This document shows, piece by piece, positions 18,211 to 45,604 of a stretch of DNA of 45,604 nt. This DNA is from Escherichia coli. Lineage in GTDB: Bacteria; Pseudomonadota; Gammaproteobacteria; Enterobacterales; Enterobacteriaceae. The position numbers and the translations under genes are program-made. The stretch lies in the NCBI RefSeq assembly GCF_003334335.1, contig NZ_QOWQ01000036.1; one strand, 5' to 3'. Within the stretch, counting starts at the first letter, position 1; the number at the start of each line of letters is the position of its first letter. The notes beneath the pieces were generated by a model that made no database searches, was not told where the DNA came from, and worked only from the letters and a program-made list of their open reading frames with translations.

Positions 18211-18380
18211 CCGTAGGCCTGATAAGACACGTTAACCGTCACATCAGGCATCGCTTGTCGGATGCGGCGCTAGCGCCTTATCCGACCTACATTGGTGGTC
18301 CCGTAGGCCTGATAAGACGCGTCAGCGTCGCATCAGGCTTCAATTGCCGGAGAAGGCGATAATGCCTTATCCGGTCTACA
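18211..18380. repeat. REP/BIME cluster in the sucB-sucC intergenic region
   Basis: Several inverted copies of the gcctgatgcgacgc / gccttatccggcctac REP motif. Confidence 0.8.
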
Positions 18381-22613: not shown

Positions 22614-22733
22614 CGCCTGATGCGCTGCGCTTATCAGGCCTACGGGTAATGACTTGTAGGCCGGATAAGGCGTTCACGCCGCATCCGGCACTGGTTGCCT
22701 GATGCGACGCTTGCGCGTCTTATCAGGCCTACG
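22614..22733. repeat. REP cluster between sdhB and sucA
   Basis: Three REP-consensus copies in alternating orientation ending 2 nt before the sdhB stop. Confidence 0.8.
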
Positions 22734-33371: not shown

Positions 33372-34418
33372 ATGCCAGTTTTGCAGTGGGGAATGTTATG
33401 TGTGCTATCACTTCTCCTTTCTATTGGTTTCCTCGCGGTACATCTCCCGGCGGCGCTATTACTTGGGCCGATGATCGCCGGGATCATCTTTAGTATGCGC
33501 GGAATTACTCTGCAACTTCCCCGCTCTGCTTTTCTCGCCGCCCAGGCCATTCTTGGCTGCATGATTGCGCAAAACCTCACTGGTTCGATTCTCACCACCC
33601 TGGCCGTCAACTGGCCGATCGTGCTTGCAATTTTACTGGTAACGCTGCTTTCCAGCGCCATTGTGGGTTGGTTATTGGTGCGCTATAGCTCATTGCCTGG
33701 AAATACCGGTGCCTGGGGCTCCTCTCCTGGCGGCGCGGCGGCAATGGTCGCTATGGCGCAAGATTACGGCGCAGATATTCGCCTGGTGGCGTTTATGCAA
33801 TATCTGCGAGTGCTGTTCGTCGCGGGGGCCGCTGTTCTGGTCACCCGCATGATGCTGGGCGATAACGCTGAAGCGGTTAACCAGCATATCGTCTGGTTCC
33901 CGCCAGTGAGCATTAATCTCCTGCTTACTATTTTGCTCGCGGTCGTTGCCGGTACAGTGGGATGCCTGCTGCGTCTTCCTTCCGGCACGATGCTCATCCC
34001 GATGCTGGCGGGCGCAGTGCTCCAGTCTGGTCAGCTCATCACCATCGAACTACCGGAATGGCTGCTGGCGATGGCGTATATGGCAATTGGCTGGCGGATT
34101 GGTCTTGGTTTCGATAAACAAATCTTACTGCGGGCACTACGCCCGCTACCGCAAATCCTGCTGTCGATTTTTGCTCTGCTGGCTATTTGTGCGGGTATGG
34201 CGTGGGGGCTGACCCGGTTTATGCACATTGATTTTATGACTGCCTACCTCGCCACCAGCCCCGGCGGGCTTGATACCGTGGCGGTCATCGCCGCAGGGAG
34301 CAATGCCGATATGGCGCTCATTATGGCGATGCAAACCCTACGCCTGTTCAGTATTTTGCTGACAGGGCCTGCCATTGCGCGGTTTATTTCAACCTATGCG
34401 CCGAAGCGGTCGGCCTAG
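33372..34418 (+). CDS. abrB: AbrB-family membrane protein (putative regulator/transporter)
   Basis: ORF track gives 374 aa; start placed at MPVLQWGML (348 aa); polytopic membrane protein. Confidence 0.85.
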
Positions 34419-35206
34419 TGCTGGCAGCCAGGGCACCAGTAAAACGGGCGAGATGACAGCGTGGTTTTCTCAATGATGCTGCCACAACGTTCGCACGGTT
34501 CGCCATCTCGATGAAAAACCTTAAAGCGAAACAGCGCCCCATGATGCTTATTCTCATCCACCTGCCCCCGCGTAGCGTAGGAAAATCGAGGAATCTCCAG
34601 TAACGCGTGTGCGAGTGCATCCAGTTGCGCCGCATTGAGATCTTTCGCTTTATGATTTCCAGTCAACCCAACCTGCCAGAGGATCTCCACCCGCAAATAA
34701 TTGCCAAGCCCAGCCAGAAACGCCTGATCGAGCAGTAATCCAGCAAACTGACGGTTACGAAAGCGCGGCGACAATAATCGTTCTTTCACCACCTCCGGCG
34801 TCAGATTCGGATCCAGCACATCGGGACCAACGCGTTGTAAAAACGGATGCGTGGTCAGTTGTTCCGGGGTCAACATCTCAATATCCGAGGCGCTATAAAG
34901 CAGAATGGTTTTGTCAGCCGTTTGCAGTTTTACCCGCAATACTCGCGTGGTCTGCGGCTCTTCGCCGGTATCAACCACGCGCCAGACGCCGTAAAGCTGA
35001 TTATGGCTGTAGAGCGTTAAGTCGTTGGAAAAATGAGTTAACAACGCCTTACCACGCGTTTCCACATGGGTAACGTGTTGACCGATAAGTTGTGATTGAT
35101 AAGGTTTTAACTGCGGGAAGGCAAACCAGACATCAGTTAGTGGTTTGCCTTTGATCGCCGCCTCCAGGTTATCCGCTGCACGGCGGATCTCCGGGCCTTC
35201 AGGCAT
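34415..35206 (-). CDS. nei: Endonuclease VIII (DNA glycosylase/AP lyase)
   Basis: 263 aa; N-terminal MPEGPEI catalytic Pro, C-terminal zinc finger (CxxC...CxxC). Confidence 0.95.
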
Positions 35207-35241
35207 GGTGATATCCTTTTTTCATTCTTTATTAATCGGGG

Positions 35242-35976
35242 TTATGCTGCGACAACAATCCCCTTTTCGGCAAATGCAGAGCGTAGTCGGCGGGCGAACG
35301 CCAGTGCGTGCTCGCCGTCGCCATGCAGGCAGACCGTTTGCGCCGCGACCGTTGCCCATTCGCCGGTGATACTTTTGACTCTGCCGTGTTGCACCATCTC
35401 CAGCGTTTGCGCCAGCGCCTGTTCTTCGTTTTCAATCAACGCGCCTGACTGGCTTCGCGGCACCAGCGAGCCGTCAGCCTGATAACCGCGATCGGCAAAC
35501 ACTTCCTCGCGCGTTGTCAGACCATATTGCTTGCCTGCACGAATCAGCTCGCTTCCCGCCAGCCCGACGAGAATCAATGCTGGATCGCAAGCGTATACCG
35601 CTCTGGCGATGGCGTCTGCCAGTTGTGCTTCTTTCGCCGCCTGGTTGTACAACATGCCGTGCGGTTTGACATGACGCATTACGCCGCCTTGCGCACGGGC
35701 AATCGTTGCCAGCGCGCCAATTTGATACAGCGTCTGGGCGTAAACGGTTTCTGGCGGCAGCTGCATGGCGCTGCGACCAAAATTTTCCCTGTCGGGAAAA
35801 CTCGGGTGAGCGCCAATCGCGACACCATTTTTTATTGCTTCACGCACGCAAGCCTGCATGATTTGCGCATCGCCTGCATGAAATCCACAGGCAATATTGG
35901 CAGAGGAAACCAGCGTTAATAGCTCTGCGTCGCTGGCGCAGCCTTCGCCCAGATCGGCGTTCAGGTCAATTTTCAT
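35242..35976 (-). CDS. pxpA: 5-oxoprolinase subunit A (LamB/YcsF family)
   Basis: 244 aa, last gene of ybgI-pxpBCA cluster. Confidence 0.9.
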
Positions 35977-36898
35977 TGTGCAGCCGCCACGCTAATTGTT
36001 CAAAATAACGTTGCTGATCTTGCCGTGCTTTTAGTGCCTCTTCCAGTGAACACTGGACAAAATGAATCGGCTGACCGAGCGGAATTTGCGCCAGATGGTA
36101 CATATCAGCCTCAATGATACAGGCAATACGCGGGTAACCACCGGTGGTCTGTGCGTCGTTCATCAACACAATCGGCTGCCCGTTATGTGGCACCTGCACC
36201 ACGCCCGGTAACAAACCGTGAGATAACAGTTCGCGATCGGTGGTGCGTTTTAAAATTTGCCCCTGTAAGCGATAGCCCATGCGGTTACTTTGCGAGCTAA
36301 GCTGCCAGGGCGAACGCCAGAATGCATCCTGCGAGGCGCGATCGAACTCATGATATTCCGGCCCCGGCAAGGCGCGAATGCGGTTGCCCCACAGCAGCTG
36401 TTTAACGCCCTGCGCTTCCATAGAATCACGCTTCGATTTGCCAATCGGGAGTCGGTCACCATCCTTCAGTAAACGGCCTTCCAGCCCGCCAATCCCCACT
36501 TTGAGATCGGTGCTGCATGAGCCCATTACCGGCGGAACATCAATACCACCCGCGACCGCCAGATAACTGCGCATCCCGTGCTGCGGGCGTTTAAGCGTTA
36601 AACGCTGGCCTGCTTTCATCGGCAATCGCCAGCCGGTCCAGACGGCATTATCATCCAGCCGCGCTTCGCAACCGGCACCCGTCAGAGCAAACCACCCATC
36701 AGTTTCGAACTCAACAGTTAACTGACCGAGCGTGATCTCCAGCGCGGGGGCATTGGCGTCATTACCCACCAGTAGGTTAGCAATGCGTAACGCGGGCATA
36801 TCCAGTGCGCCGCAGTGGCTGATACCCGACTGGCGAAAACCGTGACGACCGCCATCCTGCACAGTGGTATACATGCCCGCACGAATAATCTTCAGCAT
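35966..36898 (-). CDS. pxpC: 5-oxoprolinase subunit C (allophanate hydrolase subunit 2-like)
   Basis: 310 aa; overlaps pxpA start by 11 nt. Confidence 0.9.
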
Positions 36899-37548
36899 AC
36901 TCCCTCCTTCTGCGGTACAAAGCGCACGCTGTCTCCCGGACGTAATAAGATGGGTTCGTCACGCGCCGGATCAAACAGGCTGAGTGAGGTATGACCAATC
37001 AACTGCCAGCCACCCGGCGTTGCCAGCGGATAAACACCAGTCTGCGGCCCGCCGATCCCGACAGAACCTGCCGGAACGAGTAAGCGCGGTTCAGCGCGCC
37101 GTGGCGTGTGTAGTTGTTCCGGCAAACTCCCGAGATACGGGAAGCCCGGTTGAAAACCTAAAAACCAGACCACGTATTCCACGGAGGAGTGCAATTCAAC
37201 AACCTGTTTTTCGCTCAACCCGCAATGCGCCGCGACCACCGCCAAATCCGGTCCGCCTGCACCACCGTAAACCACCGGAATTTCAATAAAGCGAGACTCC
37301 GGCTCCAGCGCCTCGCTCTCCTCCCACCAGCGTTGCAAACGCTCTATGGCATCCAGCGCCAGCGACTCAGGATTACGCAAAATCACCGTGATATTGTTCA
37401 TGCCGGGAATGGCTTCAACCACATTCGGCATATCCACCAGACGCTGCGCCAGTCGCCAGATCCGTTTCTGGCTAGCCAGCGTCACCGGCGGTTCCAGTTC
37501 CAGCACTACCGCCGTTTCACCTATCAGATAACAACGCGCTCGTTGCAC
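36892..37548 (-). CDS. pxpB: 5-oxoprolinase subunit B (allophanate hydrolase subunit 1-like)
   Basis: 218 aa; overlaps pxpC start. Confidence 0.9.
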
Positions 37549-37570
37549 TTTCGATCCCTCTGATTATTCG

Positions 37571-38314
37571 TTATGCAGGATTAGGAATATCAATAAAGGT
37601 CACATCAAGATCGGTATTTTCATTCAGCCACTCGCTCAATGCGCGAATACCACCACGTTCAGTGGCATGGTGACCTGCAGCATAAAAATGCAATCCCTGC
37701 TCGCGGGCTGAATGAATGGTCTGTTCAGAAACTTCGCCAGTAATAAAAGCATCCACGCCAAAACGCGCGGCGCTATCGATAAAACTTTGCCCGCCGCCCG
37801 TGCACCAGGCGACGCGCTGGACCACCTCAGGTCCGGTATCGCCACACCATAACGGCTTACGTCCCAGACGCGCTTCAATCCAGGAAGCCAGCTCCAGTCC
37901 CGGCACAGGCATGGTCAGTTCGCCCCACGGCACCAACGGCTCAATTTCGCCCATGACCGTGATCCCCAGTAACGCCGCCAGCTGTGCGTTATTGCCCAGC
38001 TCAGGATGTGCGTCAAGCGGCAAATGCCAGCCATACAGGTTGATATCATTCGCCAGCAACGTTTTTAAACGGTTACGCTTCATTCCGCGAATGACCGGAG
38101 ACTCTCCTTTCCAGAAGTAGCCATGATGCACAATGACCGCATCCGCGCCCAGACGCACTGCCTCATCGAGCAAAGCCTGGCTGGCGGTGACACCGGTAAC
38201 AATTTTTTGCACCGTCTCTTTGCCTTCCACCTGCAAACCATTCGGCGCGTAATCACTAATCGCCGCGCTGTTCAGTTTTTCGTTAATCAGTTGTTCCAGT
38301 TCGGTGTTTTTCAT
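37571..38314 (-). CDS. ybgI: Nif3-family metal-binding protein (GTP cyclohydrolase 1 type 2 homolog)
   Basis: 247 aa, His-rich metal-binding motifs typical of Nif3/YbgI. Confidence 0.9.
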   Translation of the reverse strand: MKNTELEQLINEKLNSAAISDYAPNGLQVEGKETVQKIVTGVTASQALLDEAVRLGADAVIVHHGYFWKGESPVIRGMKRNRLKTLLANDINLYGWHLPLDAHPELGNNAQLAALLGITVMGEIEPLVPWGELTMPVPGLELASWIEARLGRKPLWCGDTGPEVVQRVAWCTGGGQSFIDSAARFGVDAFITGEVSEQTIHSAREQGLHFYAAGHHATERGGIRALSEWLNENTDLDVTFIDIPNPA

Positions 38315-38401
38315 CTTCGCGCCTTCCGTATTCTGATAGCTACACCGTTAACATAGCGTTACCTCGCCAGTTCGTCGATAGCCAATCTTTTGACATATTA
38401 A

Positions 38402-40066
<1,665 letters not shown>

Positions 40067-40080
40067 TAGGCCAGCACCGA

Positions 40081-40190
40081 TGCCTGATGCGACGCTTGAC
40101 GCGTCTTATCAGGCCTACGTATTTCCTGCAATTTATTGAATTTGCACAAATTTGTAGGCTGGATAAGGCGTTCACGCCGCATCCGGCATC
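40081..40190. repeat. REP pair between dtpD and phr
   Basis: Two inverted REP-consensus copies (gcctgatgcgacgc... / ...gccgcatccggc). Confidence 0.8.
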
Positions 40191-40215
40191 TGGGCTCGAT
40201 TGCCTGACGCGTCTG

Positions 40216-41634
40216 TTATTTCCCCTTCCGCGCCGCCTCATACGCTGCCAACGTTTGTACTCTCGCTTCTTTGTGCTCGACTATCGGTTGCGGATAATCC
40301 AGCGTCACACCTGCTTTCTGCGCCCACTTCCACGGCTCATGCACCACTTTCCCTGGCACATCGCGCAGTTCCGGTAGCCACTGGCGGATAAACTCGCCCT
40401 CATGATCAAATTTCTCGCCCTGGGTTGTCGGGTTGAAAATACGAAAATACGGCGCTGCATCGGTTCCGGTTGAAGCGGCCCACTGCCAGCCACCGTTATT
40501 GGCTGCCAAATCACCATCAATCAGCTGCGACATGAAATATCGCTCGCCTTCGCGCCAGTCGATCAATAAATCTTTCACCAGAAAACTGGCTGTAATCATC
40601 CGTAGCCTGTTATGCATCCAGCCAGTGCTGTTAAGCTGACGCATAGCGGCATCAACAATCGGGTATCCCGTTTTGCCTTCCTGCCAGGCCTGTAAATGTG
40701 CGGGATTGCTCTGCCACTGTACACGATCCGTCCAGGCAATAAATGGACGATGTTTACACAACGAGGGGTGATACGTTATCAGGTGACGGTAAAACTCGCG
40801 CCAGATCAGCTCATTAAGCCAGACACTACCGGCCCCACCGTCCAGCGCCTGCGGCTGTTCAGCCAACAAGCGATGCAAGCACTGGCGAGGCGATAACCCG
40901 CCCGTTGCCAGGCTGGCCGACAAACGGCTGGTGCCTTCCACTGCCGGAAAATCTCGTTGTTGCTCATATTCTCCGGCACCGTTCTGGCAAAACTGGCGTA
41001 ATTGCGCAATCGCCGCTTTTTCTTCCACCGGAAAATGCGCAGTATCGAAAGACTGACGAGGATAATTCAGCGTAATGGATGGCGAGGGCTCTATCGATCC
41101 GCTACTACGAACTTTTGGCGCAGCGACGCACTCCGGCATCCCTTCCCGCAGCCGTTTCAGCCAGGCATTCTTAAAAGGCGTAAAGACTTTGTACATCTCG
41201 TGATTACCGGTCATCACCGCGCCAGGCGGCAGGATCACGCTGTCATCAAATCCTTCACACACCACGTTACGCAGCGCTCTTTCAACTTCCACATCCCGCG
41301 CCCGCTCATTCACTTCATACTGATAGTTATAAAACAGGTGGGTAACGCTGTTTTCCGCGCACACCTGTTTAACTATTTCGACACTGGCGACAAAGTCATC
41401 CACTTCACGGAACAATAAAGGAATACCTTTTTCCGCAAGCGCTATTTGTAGCCCATTCAGTTGAGCATTGATAAGTTCAGCCTGACGCGGCGACATGTTA
41501 TGCGTCGCCCACTGGCGTGGTGTAGCGATATACAACGCCAGCACGCGTGCAGACGAATTGCGGCAGGCGGCAGCCAGTGCGAGATTATCGTGCAGACGTA
41601 AATCCTGGCGAAACCAGACCAGATGGGTAGTCAT
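40216..41634 (-). CDS. phr: Deoxyribodipyrimidine photolyase
   Basis: 472 aa; MTTHLVWFRQDLRLHDNLAL N-terminus, FAD-binding C-terminal domain. Confidence 0.95.
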   Translation of the reverse strand: MTTHLVWFRQDLRLHDNLALAAACRNSSARVLALYIATPRQWATHNMSPRQAELINAQLNGLQIALAEKGIPLLFREVDDFVASVEIVKQVCAENSVTHLFYNYQYEVNERARDVEVERALRNVVCEGFDDSVILPPGAVMTGNHEMYKVFTPFKNAWLKRLREGMPECVAAPKVRSSGSIEPSPSITLNYPRQSFDTAHFPVEEKAAIAQLRQFCQNGAGEYEQQRDFPAVEGTSRLSASLATGGLSPRQCLHRLLAEQPQALDGGAGSVWLNELIWREFYRHLITYHPSLCKHRPFIAWTDRVQWQSNPAHLQAWQEGKTGYPIVDAAMRQLNSTGWMHNRLRMITASFLVKDLLIDWREGERYFMSQLIDGDLAANNGGWQWAASTGTDAAPYFRIFNPTTQGEKFDHEGEFIRQWLPELRDVPGKVVHEPWKWAQKAGVTLDYPQPIVEHKEARVQTLAAYEAARKGK

Positions 41635-42140
41635 AAAACTCCTGAATGGCGCAAGTTAATCACACGCGGCCAAAGTTCGAAATAACGCTGCCCTGAAAGC
41701 CAGGCGTCAGGATAAAGCGCCATATAGTGTTTGATACGCATCAGCGGCGCAAGAAGTGGTTGCTCGCCACGGCGATAACTGTCGATAAGCGCAGCCAGCT
41801 GCTGGCGTTCTGTGGAATCAATATGCGGGCGAAAATAACCCTGAACGTGCATCAAAACATTGGTGTGATCGCGCGGGTTGGCGGGGTGAGAAAGCAAAAC
41901 AACTACGCGTTGGCGGTACTGGTTGTAATAGTCATCCAGATTTTGCCACTGGTGAATATCAGCCACGAACGGGCCAAGTTTGCGGTACTCCGGCTGAGAA
42001 TGCGCCAGAAAGACGAGTTTATAGCGGCTGTGATAATCGAGAAGCGCCCCGCGCGTTAAGCCATGTTCTTTCAGTCGATGTAACTCATGAAGGGCAAAGA
42101 TACGGATTAGGGTGCTGTCATCAAATCGTTGTAGATTCAT
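41631..42140 (-). CDS. ybgA: DUF1722-family protein co-transcribed with phr
   Basis: 169 aa; overlaps phr start by 4 nt. Confidence 0.88.
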   Translation of the reverse strand: MNLQRFDDSTLIRIFALHELHRLKEHGLTRGALLDYHSRYKLVFLAHSQPEYRKLGPFVADIHQWQNLDDYYNQYRQRVVVLLSHPANPRDHTNVLMHVQGYFRPHIDSTERQQLAALIDSYRRGEQPLLAPLMRIKHYMALYPDAWLSGQRYFELWPRVINLRHSGVL

Positions 42141-42287
42141 TACTGCTCCTGAGCGGTTTACAGGAGTAAGTGTAGACGTTGAGAAATGATATTTGTGAAG
42201 TTAATCCTGTTGTAGCAGGACAAATTTACGAAAGCCTGCTCCCCGCAAGGACTGACGTCAGGTAGTTTCTAACCATAGCTGCCCTTT

Positions 42288-43049
42288 CTATTCAAACGTG
42301 AAATCAATAAGTTCATCAGGGACATCGCAAACAATATGAAGACGGATTTCTTCTCTGCCGTGACTCTTTTCACTCATTGCGTAACTGTCATGCTCTGGAT
42401 TATTTAATTCTTTCAGCGGAAATTTTTCCTCAAAGGCTTTATTTAGCCGCCCCTGGTTTCCTTTTACCGCGAATAAATAATCACCTCCCTGTTTTTGTAT
42501 CTTCTCTGCAATATCTTTCTGGCAACCCATCGCATCAGTTGTGATGATTTTTCCTTTAATATCCAGCATGTTAAGAAGTTCAGGGATAGCTGTGATCTCA
42601 TTGGATTTCTTATCCGTCTTGATCTGCCCGATGACCAGACTGTGCATTGTTGAGAACGCACTAATGACATGAATCGCTCCCCTGCGGCGACTCTTGTCAT
42701 AAGAGTGCCGGAGCGTTTTTCCATCAATTGCAATGACGTCTTTATCATTTGATGAATGGCAATCACGCATCCAGTTAATAAAGCACTCGTGAAATTTTGC
42801 AGGACTGATACAGGATACAACTCTGGCAATAGTATCGTGAACAGGAATACCATTTTCAAAATCACCATATTGCTTCAAGAAATCGAGATGTGTTTCCCCG
42901 AAATCCTCTATATCTTCCCAACTTTCTGCACCAGAAATAACGGCAAAAATAGTCAATAGTAGGATGCCTGACAATTTATGCTCTACTTTCCAGGCTTATC
43001 TGTAATCGGGAATAATAGAAATATGTTCCATCAATTTTTTAAGTTCCAT
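42288..43049 (-). pseudogene. ybfD: H-repeat-associated transposase remnant, copy 1 (ybfD-like), in-frame TAA at codon 18 and 3'-truncated
   Basis: [17 protein letters not shown]-stop(42996-42998)[10 protein letters not shown]... then 228 codons; ends ...[12 protein letters not shown] where full-length ORF-H continues W-K-G-L. Confidence 0.75.
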
Positions 43050-43174
43050 TTGTTCACCTTATTTATGTAAGGAGTATTTGATCATGTATAAGCTATGAAA
43101 AACAGCTTTAGGTAATAAGGAATATCTCAATTTTTAAACATAAAATGCGAATTATTTAGTACAAAAAAGTAGCG

Positions 43175-43429
43175 TTACGTGATCTTTCCCTGGGATACAA
43201 CTCTGGCAATGGTATCGTGAACAGGAATACCATTTTCAAAATCACCATATTGCTTCAAAAAATCGAGATGTGTTTCCCCGAAATCCTCTATATCTTCCCA
43301 ACCTTCTGCACCAGAAATAACGGCACAAATAGTCAACAGTAGAATATCTGACAATTTATGCACCACTTTCCAGGCTTGTCTGTAATCGGGTGTAATAGAA
43401 ATATGTTCCATCAATTTTTTAAGTTCCAT
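43175..43429 (-). pseudogene. H-repeat transposase N-terminal fragment, copy 2 (84 codons)
   Basis: [22 protein letters not shown]...IARVVS then out-of-family QGKIT-stop created by the repeat junction. Confidence 0.8.
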
Positions 43430-43554
43430 TTGTTCACCTTATTTATGTAAGGAGTATTTGATCATGTATAAGCTATGAAAAACAGCTTTAGGTAATAAGG
43501 AATATCTCAATTTTTAAACATAAAATGCGAATTATTTAGTACAAAAAAGTAGCG

Positions 43555-43809
43555 TTACGTGATCTTTCCCTGGGATACAACTCTGGCAATGGTATCGTGA
43601 ACAGGAATACCATTTTCAAAATCACCATATTGCTTCAAAAAATCGAGATGTGTTTCCCCAAAATCCTCTATATCTTCCCAACCTTCTGCACCAGAAATAA
43701 CGGCACAAATAGTCAACAGTAGAATATCCGATAATTTATGTTCCACTTTCCAGGTTTGTCTGTAATCGGGGATAATAGAAATATGTTCCATCAATTTTTT
43801 AAGTTCCAT
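43555..43809 (-). pseudogene. H-repeat transposase N-terminal fragment, copy 3 (84 codons)
   Basis: Near-identical to copy 2 (I13, T19, E23 variants); same junction-derived C-terminus. Confidence 0.8.
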
Positions 43810-43951
43810 TTTGTTCTCCTTAATTAGGTAAGGAGTATTTGATCATGTATAAGCAATAAAAAACAGCTTCAGGTAATAAGGAATATCTCAATTTTTAAAC
43901 ATAAAATGCGAATTATTTAGTGCAAAAAGTGAACTTTTGATGATCTTTCCC

Positions 43952-44315
43952 TGGCCGTTGACTCGATTGCCGTAGCTCGAACGCAAGCACTCTTATCATT
44001 CAATGCCATATTGTTCAAAATATTAAAAACATTATCTTCGCATTTTTTGCAAATTTATATTTGCCCGAGTATAAATGCTCCGATATCTCTACGGATATAA
44101 TTTTTGTCAGTGCAGAATTCAATTGCCAATCTAACAGCGTCTTGCCCCCCTCTTAACTGTAATACTCTGGCAGATGAAATCCTTTTCAAGGAATTGCGAT
44201 CATCAAGTAAGCGAAATAATTCATCATCATTTAGTTTCTTACATTTATTATATAAACCATACTCTTTACTTGCCTTTCTTTTCTGGTATGTATTTGACAT
44301 TGCAGGAACCTCCAT
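43952..44315 (-). pseudogene. yibA-like HEAT-repeat (PBS-lyase type) gene remnant
   Basis: MSNTYQKRKASKEYGLYN...AFILGQI then TAA (44055-44057); homology continues in frame (ICKKCEDNVFNILNNMALNDKSACVRATAIESTA) to ~43953 where the H-rpt terminus begins. Confidence 0.7.
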
Positions 44316-44509
44316 AAAGGCTATCTTTTTCTATCGTTTGACTGTCTGGAGTCCTCCACCTACTCTGCCATCAGCGCACACGATGTTTGATTATCCTTAC
44401 ATACTTATTTTCCGTGGCCAAAATTCAGAATTCTCCCATCATTTTTGCCTATTTCTATAATAAAAACCCCACCAGCAATTTGGTCTGAGTGAATGGTACC
44501 TTCAACAAC

Positions 44510-44752
44510 TCAACTTGTTGTTAACTCAGTGATTTCGTATGGTTTTTCTTCTTCTGCGGCATCCTGTCCATAACGATTCTTAACATATATCTCAGCTAAT
44601 TCCAATGCTATAGCTTTATTTTTAACCAAATTTCTAACGGTATATTTACCTTCACTTTCATACTTGCGCATTATTTTAATATTATTATTACACTGCGCCC
44701 ATGTGTTGTATGTAAAAACAAACAAAGATACAATGACACAGTTCCTAAACAA
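44510..44752 (-). CDS. Small secreted protein, candidate Rhs immunity protein
   Basis: 80-aa ORF 6 nt downstream of the Rhs tip stop; N-terminal signal-peptide-like segment (MFRNCVIVSLFVFTYNTWA); AT-rich like the tip. Confidence 0.5.
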   Translation of the reverse strand: MFRNCVIVSLFVFTYNTWAQCNNNIKIMRKYESEGKYTVRNLVKNKAIALELAEIYVKNRYGQDAAEEEKPYEITELTTS

Positions 44753-44758
44753 TATTTT

Positions 44759-45604
44759 TTACATATTACCATGAACTCTGCAGACATTAGGTAATCCTTT
44801 TCTGTTTGTTATTTCCTTCCCGTGGTTATCTATTGCTTTAAAATTACCACTGGGCGTACCTAAATAAAATGACTTGATATTGTTATCTTTACTTTTAACT
44901 ATTTTCTCATCTTTACCTGAAAATATTTCGTCCCAATATTCTCCATGACTATCTGCACCATGAGTATGATAAGCTGATACTTTCTCAGTACCATTAGGGC
45001 AAGGGCTATTGAATGGATATGATCCTTTTCTTTCTCCTCGGTTAGGTGCTGTTGAGAAATATCTGCCACTATTATCCTTACATATTAAACCAGCGAACTC
45101 TTTATCTTCGCAAATAGATTGGCTATTTATTTTATTTAAGGCGCCATATGCGGTGCTATCTATAGAATCAAATTTATCTGGACCTATCATAGCGGATAGT
45201 GTGCCGCAAAGACCATTAGTACATGCCCCCGATTTTGCATCCTCCCACATAGATAAACCCAGGGGGTCGATGTCTGATATCGGATTCAATTGATATCCAT
45301 ACAGGTTCCATCCCCCCTTCAGTCCAATCGGATCCTGAGTGATATATCGCCCCTGCAGCGGGTCATAATAGCGGTGGCGGTTGTAATACAGGCCGGACTC
45401 CTCATCATACTGCTGCCCCGGCAGCCGGATAAGCTGCTGCAGCTGATGCGGGTTCTCTTCATTCAGCAGGTTGCCCCATTCATCATATTCTGCGCACCAC
45501 GCTGTTGCCCCTTCCGTGCTGATGAGCGCCAGCGGCAGGCCGCGATGGTCGCAGTGGTACAGGTGGATTTTTCGCGCCGGCGTGTACACCGGGTCCATCT
45601 GGTT
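44759..45604 (-). CDS. Rhs protein C-terminal part: end of conserved core plus ~164-aa variable tip (putative toxin); 5' end outside window
   Basis: Core-end signature ...[39 protein letters not shown]; abrupt GC-rich to AT-rich switch at ~45254; Cys/His-rich tip; reading frame runs to the window edge. Confidence 0.85.

Follow-up and report, generated by a model that had tools for sequence, protein, structure and literature searches.

The 147 bp between ybfD and ybgA in this stretch of Escherichia coli DNA (positions 42141-42287 of the window, which is the whole stretch analysed, 45,604 nt) are very probably a composite of three parts, left by insertion of an RhsC island between ybfA and ybgA and later decay of its insertion sequence, with a start site driven by the −10 element retained throughout. 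Core DNA occupies 42141-42178, a stub of island DNA 42179-42215 and the 3′ end of an H-repeat 42216-42287. The edge of the island falls at −17/−18 of ybgAp1, the promoter of ybgA-phr, and so lies inside that promoter and not next to it.

The ancestral order was ybfA, an intrinsic terminator with its T-tract, a spacer of about 8 bp, CGTCTACACTT (the −10), a 21-nt leader and then ybgA-phr. The island would have entered between the T-tract and the −10, with removal of the 8-9-bp spacer. The −10, start site, leader and Shine-Dalgarno sequence are all still core DNA, and the promoter spacer, −35 and upstream regions are now island DNA, first the 37-bp stub and then, from −55, the IS end. The upstream half contributed by the island presumably only modulates strength or sigma preference. 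Since a sigma-S promoter is read mainly by its extended −10, the operon would keep its start whatever lies upstream, and the exchange of upstream DNA would have at most a quantitative effect.

Features of the ybfD-ybgA gap and its surroundings (window positions; −, minus strand; promoter positions are relative to the mapped start)
Feature	Position	Strand	Remarks
phr CDS	40216-41634	−	start overlapped 4 nt by ybgA stop (ATGA)
ybgA CDS	41631..42140	−	169 aa, stand-alone DUF1722; NF007549, 347.9 bits
ybgA 5′ UTR	42141..42161	−	21 nt, G-TAAACCGCTCAGGAGCAGTA; Shine-Dalgarno CAGGAG 42151..42146; start is G at 42161
Extended −10 of ybgAp1	42167..42177	−	GTCTACACTTA; hexamer TACACT 42174..42169 at −13..−8; upstream C typical of sigma-S
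Core/island junction	42178..42179		last core base 42178 (−17); first island base 42179 (−18)
Island stub	42179..42215	−	37 bp, CTACAACAGGATTAACTTCACAAATATCATTTCTCAA; not H-repeat; single-copy per genome; holds −35-like TTCACA
H-repeat (ISEc1) 3′ end	42216..42283	−	terminal ~67 bp with right terminal inverted repeat (...GTAAATTTGTCCTG, ends 42216)
ybfD pseudo-ORF	42288..43049	−	ISAs1-family transposase, NF033564, 293 bits, profile 1-220 of 314
Whole defective H-repeat	42216..43192	−	977 bp, against 1,291 bp intact; left inverted repeat CAGGGAAAGATCA starts 43192
Tandem copies of H-repeat 5′ end	42813..43954	−	three copies of 380 bp (ybfQ-like), 95% matches
Orphan Rhs module	44055..45604	−	HEAT-repeat pseudogene, yhhH-like gene, Rhs core end with DUF4329-type tip; runs off window

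The core/island junction and the empty site

The stretch is the rhsC-ybgA-phr-dtpD-ybgI-pxpBCA region of the E. coli chromosome in reversed orientation, and its Rhs element is the kdp-side RhsC. The gap runs from the start codon of ybgA (the A of its ATG is at 42140, minus strand) to the stop codon of ybfD (42288-42290). The nearest record over 41300-43100 is E. coli C (99.9%), and the gene order is the same in K-12, where the counterpart is an intergenic region of 147 bp and identity extends over 176 nt spanning the whole of it. From 42178 leftward come ybgA, phr, dtpD, ybgI and pxpBCA. To the right, profile matches identify the open reading frames as fragments of ISAs1-family transposases and as the C-terminus of an Rhs core. 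The GC content is 0.536 for 34000-42178 versus 0.384 for 42179-45604.

The first-pass annotation described everything right of about 42.2 kb as AT-rich and derived from IS and Rhs elements, and that description holds. Its companion claim, that everything to the left is conserved housekeeping sequence with REP elements, stands in part: REP-derived Rfam matches are there (ES036 at 40111-40153, naRNA4 at 18216-18287 and 22659-22729), but to call all of it core is only roughly true.

Two further features of the left side vary among strains. The REP cluster between dtpD and phr is one of them, the intergenic 40067-40215 (about 150 bp, with REP and the ES036 match) measuring only about 41 bp in B2-type genomes such as Nissle. 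The other is dtpD itself, which has an inserted IS3 in E. coli C (L003 12025-14767) and is intact in the window (38585-40066), so that the window must belong to another strain than E. coli C.

When 5,426 complete E. coli genomes were searched with 41300-43100 as the query, 3,753 matched from end to end (the H-repeat/ybfD type) and about 1,670 matched query positions 1-879 only, i.e. up to 42178. Homology with island-free strains ends between 42178 and 42179, 38 bp 5′ of the ybgA ATG. Directly upstream of ybgA, the island-free genomes (wlxctx60 and Nissle among them) have ybfA with its intrinsic terminator, at an intergenic distance of about 101 bp. An empty-site query that spanned both flanks, counted at 80% coverage or more, found the contiguous ybfA-ybgA arrangement in at least 1,309 of the 5,426. 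In frequencies, the H-repeat/RhsC type makes up about 69%, the empty type at least 24% and a third allele (see below) 3%. The boundary that had been expected somewhere within 42141-42287 is therefore fixed, by the homology break in island-free genomes, at a single step; in the comparison with Rhs-free genomes that had been proposed, nothing right of 42178 was in common, and ybfA with its terminator occupied that place.

Read in the sense of ybgA, the empty site is ...GCTGGCGGTTTTTTT-CTTTTCGC-CGTCTACACTTACTCCTG..., the junction in the window is ...CATTTCTCAA-CGTCTACACTTACTCCTG... and the island's other junction, as found in E. coli C, is GGCGGTTTTTT-GTATCAGG.... These sequences place the island between the T-tract of the ybfA terminator and CGTCTACAC, and filled sites lack 8-9 bp that the empty site has. 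Flanking direct repeats or target-site duplications were sought at the two island junctions and none was found. The marks of an integrase-mediated island are missing here: the junctions lack direct repeats, and the annotations of the RhsC islands in E. coli C, K-12 and MT102 contain no integrase.

A YbgA scan in which each species was represented by a single genome extends the comparison beyond E. coli. In six Citrobacter species, Enterobacter sp. JUb54 and Trabulsiella the order is ybfA, terminator, 10-12 bp and then G or A followed by TCTACACTTA, and two GTDB Escherichia species representatives also carry the empty site. The empty layout of the outgroup genera shows that the ybfA-ybgA arrangement without an island is ancestral, and the −10-like box is conserved across genera. 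When 12 Escherichia sequences are aligned, their upstream parts fall into three classes that come together at CGTCTACAC, and between that point and the ATG the sequence is near-invariant.

The same scan bears on YbgA itself. Citrobacter homologues of ybgA seem to start about 70 nt further upstream, and their N-terminus (MSKRIPVGIRTC...) is reminiscent of TudS. In Samsonia and Dickeya the coding sequence continues upstream of the DUF1722 match, which fits a longer fused gene. Fusions of TudS and DUF1722 are known as RudS proteins (PMC11417400). The Samsonia and Dickeya genes, in which the DUF1722 part alone was matched, are consistent with a RudS-type fusion, and E. coli YbgA may be the remnant of a fusion of TudS-DUF1722 type.

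The ybgA-phr promoter and its upstream alleles

In K-12 a transcription start at U00096.2 738203, 21 nt upstream of the ybgA ATG and equivalent to window position 42161, is present in three independent datasets. Kim et al. 2012 (PMC3415461) recorded it with 12 reads and Ettwiller et al. 2016 (PMC4782308), by Cappable-seq, with a score of 147.8. Cho et al. 2014 (PMC3923258) found 284 reads over four conditions, binding of sigma-70, sigma-38 and sigma-32, and a transcription unit ybgA;phr. Their Table S7 (PMC3923258) gives ybgA values of 9.6/9.4/9.2 versus 6.2/5.8/6.1 for wild type and delta-rpoS (p = 3.7e-5), where we assume log2 values and assign the higher set to the wild type (about 9.4 versus 6.0). 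RegulonDB has ybgAp1 among its sigma-38 promoters, and it is one of only two with a detectable −35 in a set of 169 sigma-38 promoters. Both ybgA and phrB are induced on stationary-phase entry in O157:H7 Sakai.

For phr (b0708) the rpoS dependence is not significant (p = 0.21; PMC3923258), and additional K-12 start sites inside ybgA have been assigned to it, at 738234 (heat shock only) and 738646, which are window positions 42130 and 41718. On both counts effects on photolyase may be small, and its synthesis may be partly independent of ybgAp1.

The consensus of the sigma-S extended −10 is TCTATACTTAA, or KCTAYRCTTAA. The sequence at the ybgA promoter, TCTACACTTAC, fits the latter at 10 of 11 positions, with a C directly upstream of the hexamer; it is identical in 11 of the 12 Escherichia sequences (the remaining one is CTAAACTT) and recognisable in Citrobacter, Enterobacter and Trabulsiella. 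A scan of the gap with a generic sigma-70 consensus found nothing, because the promoter is of sigma-S type with a poor −35. The features are those of a sigma-S promoter, the start site and rpoS dependence being published K-12 data on the identical sequence, and the anatomy of the gap, its breakpoint and the ancestral state coming from the comparisons made here. A literature search for a start-site map of island-free E. coli found none; conservation of the −10, the sole basis, suggests that such strains use the same start.

That the gap must provide the ybgA-phr promoter had been proposed in the first-pass annotation, together with a check of transcription starts, and the primary 5′ end that the published K-12 maps put at 42161 confirms it. 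Of the two possibilities then offered, that the island end abuts or that it overlaps the regulatory region, the distance of the edge from the mapped start decides for overlap.

The TTCACA in the stub (42199..42194, −38..−33) is −35-like and separated from the −10 by a 19-bp spacer. Its counterpart in E. whittamii and E. albertii is CCCACA, which argues against it being essential, and it may be irrelevant to the promoter.

A third arrangement of the same gap is found in 171 of the 5,426 genomes, CB6886 and AHB6 among them. An unrelated segment of 1.7 kb (L006 9842-11590 in CB6886) separates ybfA from ybgA, containing an orphan CDI-type immunity gene, two hypothetical genes and, on the ybfA side, an ERIC (IRU) element, and sharing no DNA with the RhsC island. 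Its ybgA-side junction is at most about 20 bp from that of RhsC; it is not exactly placeable, since the segment ends in ~17 bp that look like the ancestral T-tract and spacer. This ambiguity is why the CB6886-type island was not accepted as proving a hotspot by sharing the RhsC junction; a preferred landing zone is hinted at, not proven.

Of the other readings of the gap, the one that survives best takes the interval between the ybfA terminator and the ybgA −10 as a recurrent insertion hotspot, at which the hybrid promoters formed differ and expression of photolyase and YbgA depends on lineage. The third, unrelated allele is the kind of event expected of it, and the AT content of the upstream 43 bp does differ among alleles (island type 0.65, empty sites 0.49-0.53, third allele 0.67). 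The binding of sigma-70 and sigma-32 besides sigma-38 at K-12 ybgAp1, and the rarity of a detectable −35 in its class, also speak for it. However, two events do not establish a hotspot, the junction of one is ambiguous, and TTCACA is not conserved in the other Escherichia species, all of which makes a hotspot possible but unlikely. A more far-reaching proposal is that unrelated polymorphic-toxin/immunity islands (RhsC, CDI-orphan) land in this gap recurrently, each replacing the upstream half of the promoter, and that lineages would differ heritably in sigma usage and in the level of photolyase and YbgA merely as a by-product of carrying an island; it is speculative, and we regard it as rather doubtful.

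There is little to recommend the idea that, in island-bearing strains, most ybgA-phr transcription comes by read-through from promoters of the H-repeat/ybfD or elsewhere in the island, the conserved CTACACTT not being the functional promoter. It is true that ybfD is co-oriented with ybgA, that no terminator-like site is present on the minus strand from 42288 to 42141, and that the datasets may under-report reads from repeated IS DNA. Against this, a strong primary 5′ end is found 7 nt downstream of the −10 in three datasets including one from a cap-enrichment method, no other + strand start is among the Cappable-seq rows listed for 735336-738202 (PMC4782308), and ybgA is strongly rpoS-dependent. 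In addition, a CUCCUG/CAGGAG stem would occlude the Shine-Dalgarno sequence in read-through RNA. With initiation at ybgAp1 as the preferred reading, some read-through from ybfD may nevertheless occur, and reads in repeated H-repeat DNA may be filtered from the start-site datasets.

The stem just mentioned is one of two short palindromes to which the first-pass annotation drew attention. Both exist: ctcctg/caggag (42146-42151 and 42161-42166) has 6 bp and a 9-nt loop and is weak, folding at −8.8 kcal/mol (z = −1.8; 11 of 200 shuffles fold equally well), and tcctg/cagga, which includes terminal bases of the IS, has merely 5 bp and is under the 6-bp reporting floor. One arm of the former is the Shine-Dalgarno sequence and the upstream arm is at −5..+1. 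As transcription starts at 42161, only one base of the upstream arm is in ybgAp1 RNA, and the stem can form, covering the Shine-Dalgarno sequence, only in RNA reading through from upstream. A function as read-through insulator is possible, though the statistics do not support it. A regulatory hairpin that sequesters the Shine-Dalgarno sequence was rejected, the upstream arm being outside the primary transcript and the fold not significant. No Rfam family matched within the gap. The palindromes are incidental, with no demonstrated role.

At this place Citrobacter carries another inverted repeat, TTATCCG-N5-CGGATAA, whose variants lose pairs that no second change restores. In E. coli, Citrobacter and Enterobacter alike, bases after the −10 (ACTTA...) are complementary to the Shine-Dalgarno region (...TAAGGAG or CAGGAG), the sequences being genus-specific. 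This complementarity may mark a conserved operator or serve to insulate against read-through; within Citrobacter no compensatory changes were seen.

Stub, H-repeat relic and island interior

The boundary is neither at the stop of the ybfD ORF nor at the end of the IS, and the 37 bp between IS end and core are not IS DNA. Two readings of the stub were rejected, one as a motif that is repeated or mobile and one as a piece of the IS: besides being single-copy it is absent from the flank of K-12 H-rptB, and in E. whittamii 65 bp separate it from a full 1,291-bp H-repeat. Elsewhere in the genus, the 37-bp stub of Escherichia sp. E1V33 and sp. MOD1-EC7003 is preceded by about 34 bp from the H-repeat end, and in E. 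albertii only the proximal ~22 bp of the stub are left. The notion that the island edge is at the H-repeat inverted repeat (42216) or the ybfD stop (42288), the remaining 75-147 bp being core with a complete native promoter, takes the IS end as a natural discontinuity and has TTCACA outside the IS, but its chances are minimal, as island-free E. coli and the outgroup genera lack the stub or anything else right of 42178, the stub is confined to genomes with the island-type junction, H-repeat homology runs on to 42216, well beyond the ORF stop, and the empty-site sequences already refute it.

The decayed end of an H-repeat ORF had been noted in the gap, and 42216-42283 does match the terminal 67 bp of K-12 H-rptB (L005 8459-8525), inverted repeat included, at 87% identity. 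The identity to H-rptB (yhhI) is 95% over the 913 bp from the left inverted repeat (43192) to 42281. An internal deletion of about 313 bp has its junction at 42281-42283, with GC microhomology. Just before that junction the TGG of H-rptB is changed to TAG, and this is the ybfD stop (42288-42290); a second nonsense codon, CAA>TAA, is near 43010. Both terminal inverted repeats are present, the left (CAGGGAAAGATCA) at 43192 and the right (CAGGACAAATTTAC) at 42216, with the unit between them shortened to 977 bp. An intact mobile IS with target-site duplication was not found, the left flank being another H-repeat fragment and the right flank the stub. This ybfD H-repeat copy is a dead, immobile relic.

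E. coli NWU_4 (L008 9992-10250) has only about 160 bp of the ybfD H-repeat beside ybgA, followed directly by murI-btuB, which indicates a large chromosomal rearrangement through H-repeat copies.

Further into the island, the tandem copies at 42813-43954 yield two ybfQ-like ORFs of 84 aa and the start of ybfD. The number of copies of the H-repeat 5′ end is variable, with one ybfQ in E. coli C and matches in O157/O55 that are about 377 bp longer than the query. The ORF at 44762-45598 matches the end of RHS_core (233.9 bits) and Rhs_assc_core (87.6 bits); the main rhsC ORF is beyond the window end and is present in the closest genomes. The location between ybfA and ybgA (synteny with E. coli C, K-12 and MT102), variability among strains, Rhs core and tip and AT-richness are those of the RhsC locus. 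The module at 44055-45604 occurs elsewhere downstream of rhsB, and the RhsC island of strain MT102 has an equal layout.

Relation to known systems

None of the components is new: the RhsC element, the H-repeat (ISEc1, ISAs1 family) and the promoter ybgAp1 have been described before. What is added is the base-exact junction at −17/−18, the 37-bp non-IS stub, the allele frequencies and the support from outgroups for the ancestral state; known biology is refined by this, and no new kind of element or mechanism emerges. A classic accessory element of E. coli is thereby given a base-exact end, and its position is an example of a −10-dominated promoter that tolerates the exchange of all DNA upstream of −17. 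K-12 annotations of the promoter include island DNA that is missing from about a quarter of E. coli genomes, and the three natural upstream alleles now defined can be compared for the effect of the island on expression of a DNA-repair operon.

The ybgAp1 of RegulonDB has the same sequence and start, and the addition here is the place of the island junction within it. The H-repeat shares with ISEc1 of the ISAs1 family (K-12 H-rptB/yhhI) the 95% and 87% identities, both inverted repeats and an ISAs1 transposase; it is unlike H-rptB in its deletion of about 313 bp, its nonsense codons, the lack of a target-site duplication and a left end that abuts an H-repeat fragment. With K-12 RhsC (ybfA, rhsC-ybfB-ybfO-ybfC-ybfQ-ybfL-ybfD, ybgA) the window has in common the site, the ybgA-proximal junction and the terminal ybfD H-repeat. 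In the window, however, three 380-bp tandem fragments and the orphan DUF4329/yhhH/HEAT module replace the ybfL/ybfC layout, and ybfD has one nonsense codon more.

Mobile elements such as IS1, IS2 and IS5 can provide a −35 to a resident −10 and so make hybrid promoters. The ybgA promoter resembles these in that foreign DNA ends between its −10 and −35 and brings a −35-like hexamer. It differs from them in that ybgAp1 was already active, being a −10-driven promoter of sigma-S type, and in that the hexamer is in the non-IS stub, at a spacing of 19 bp.
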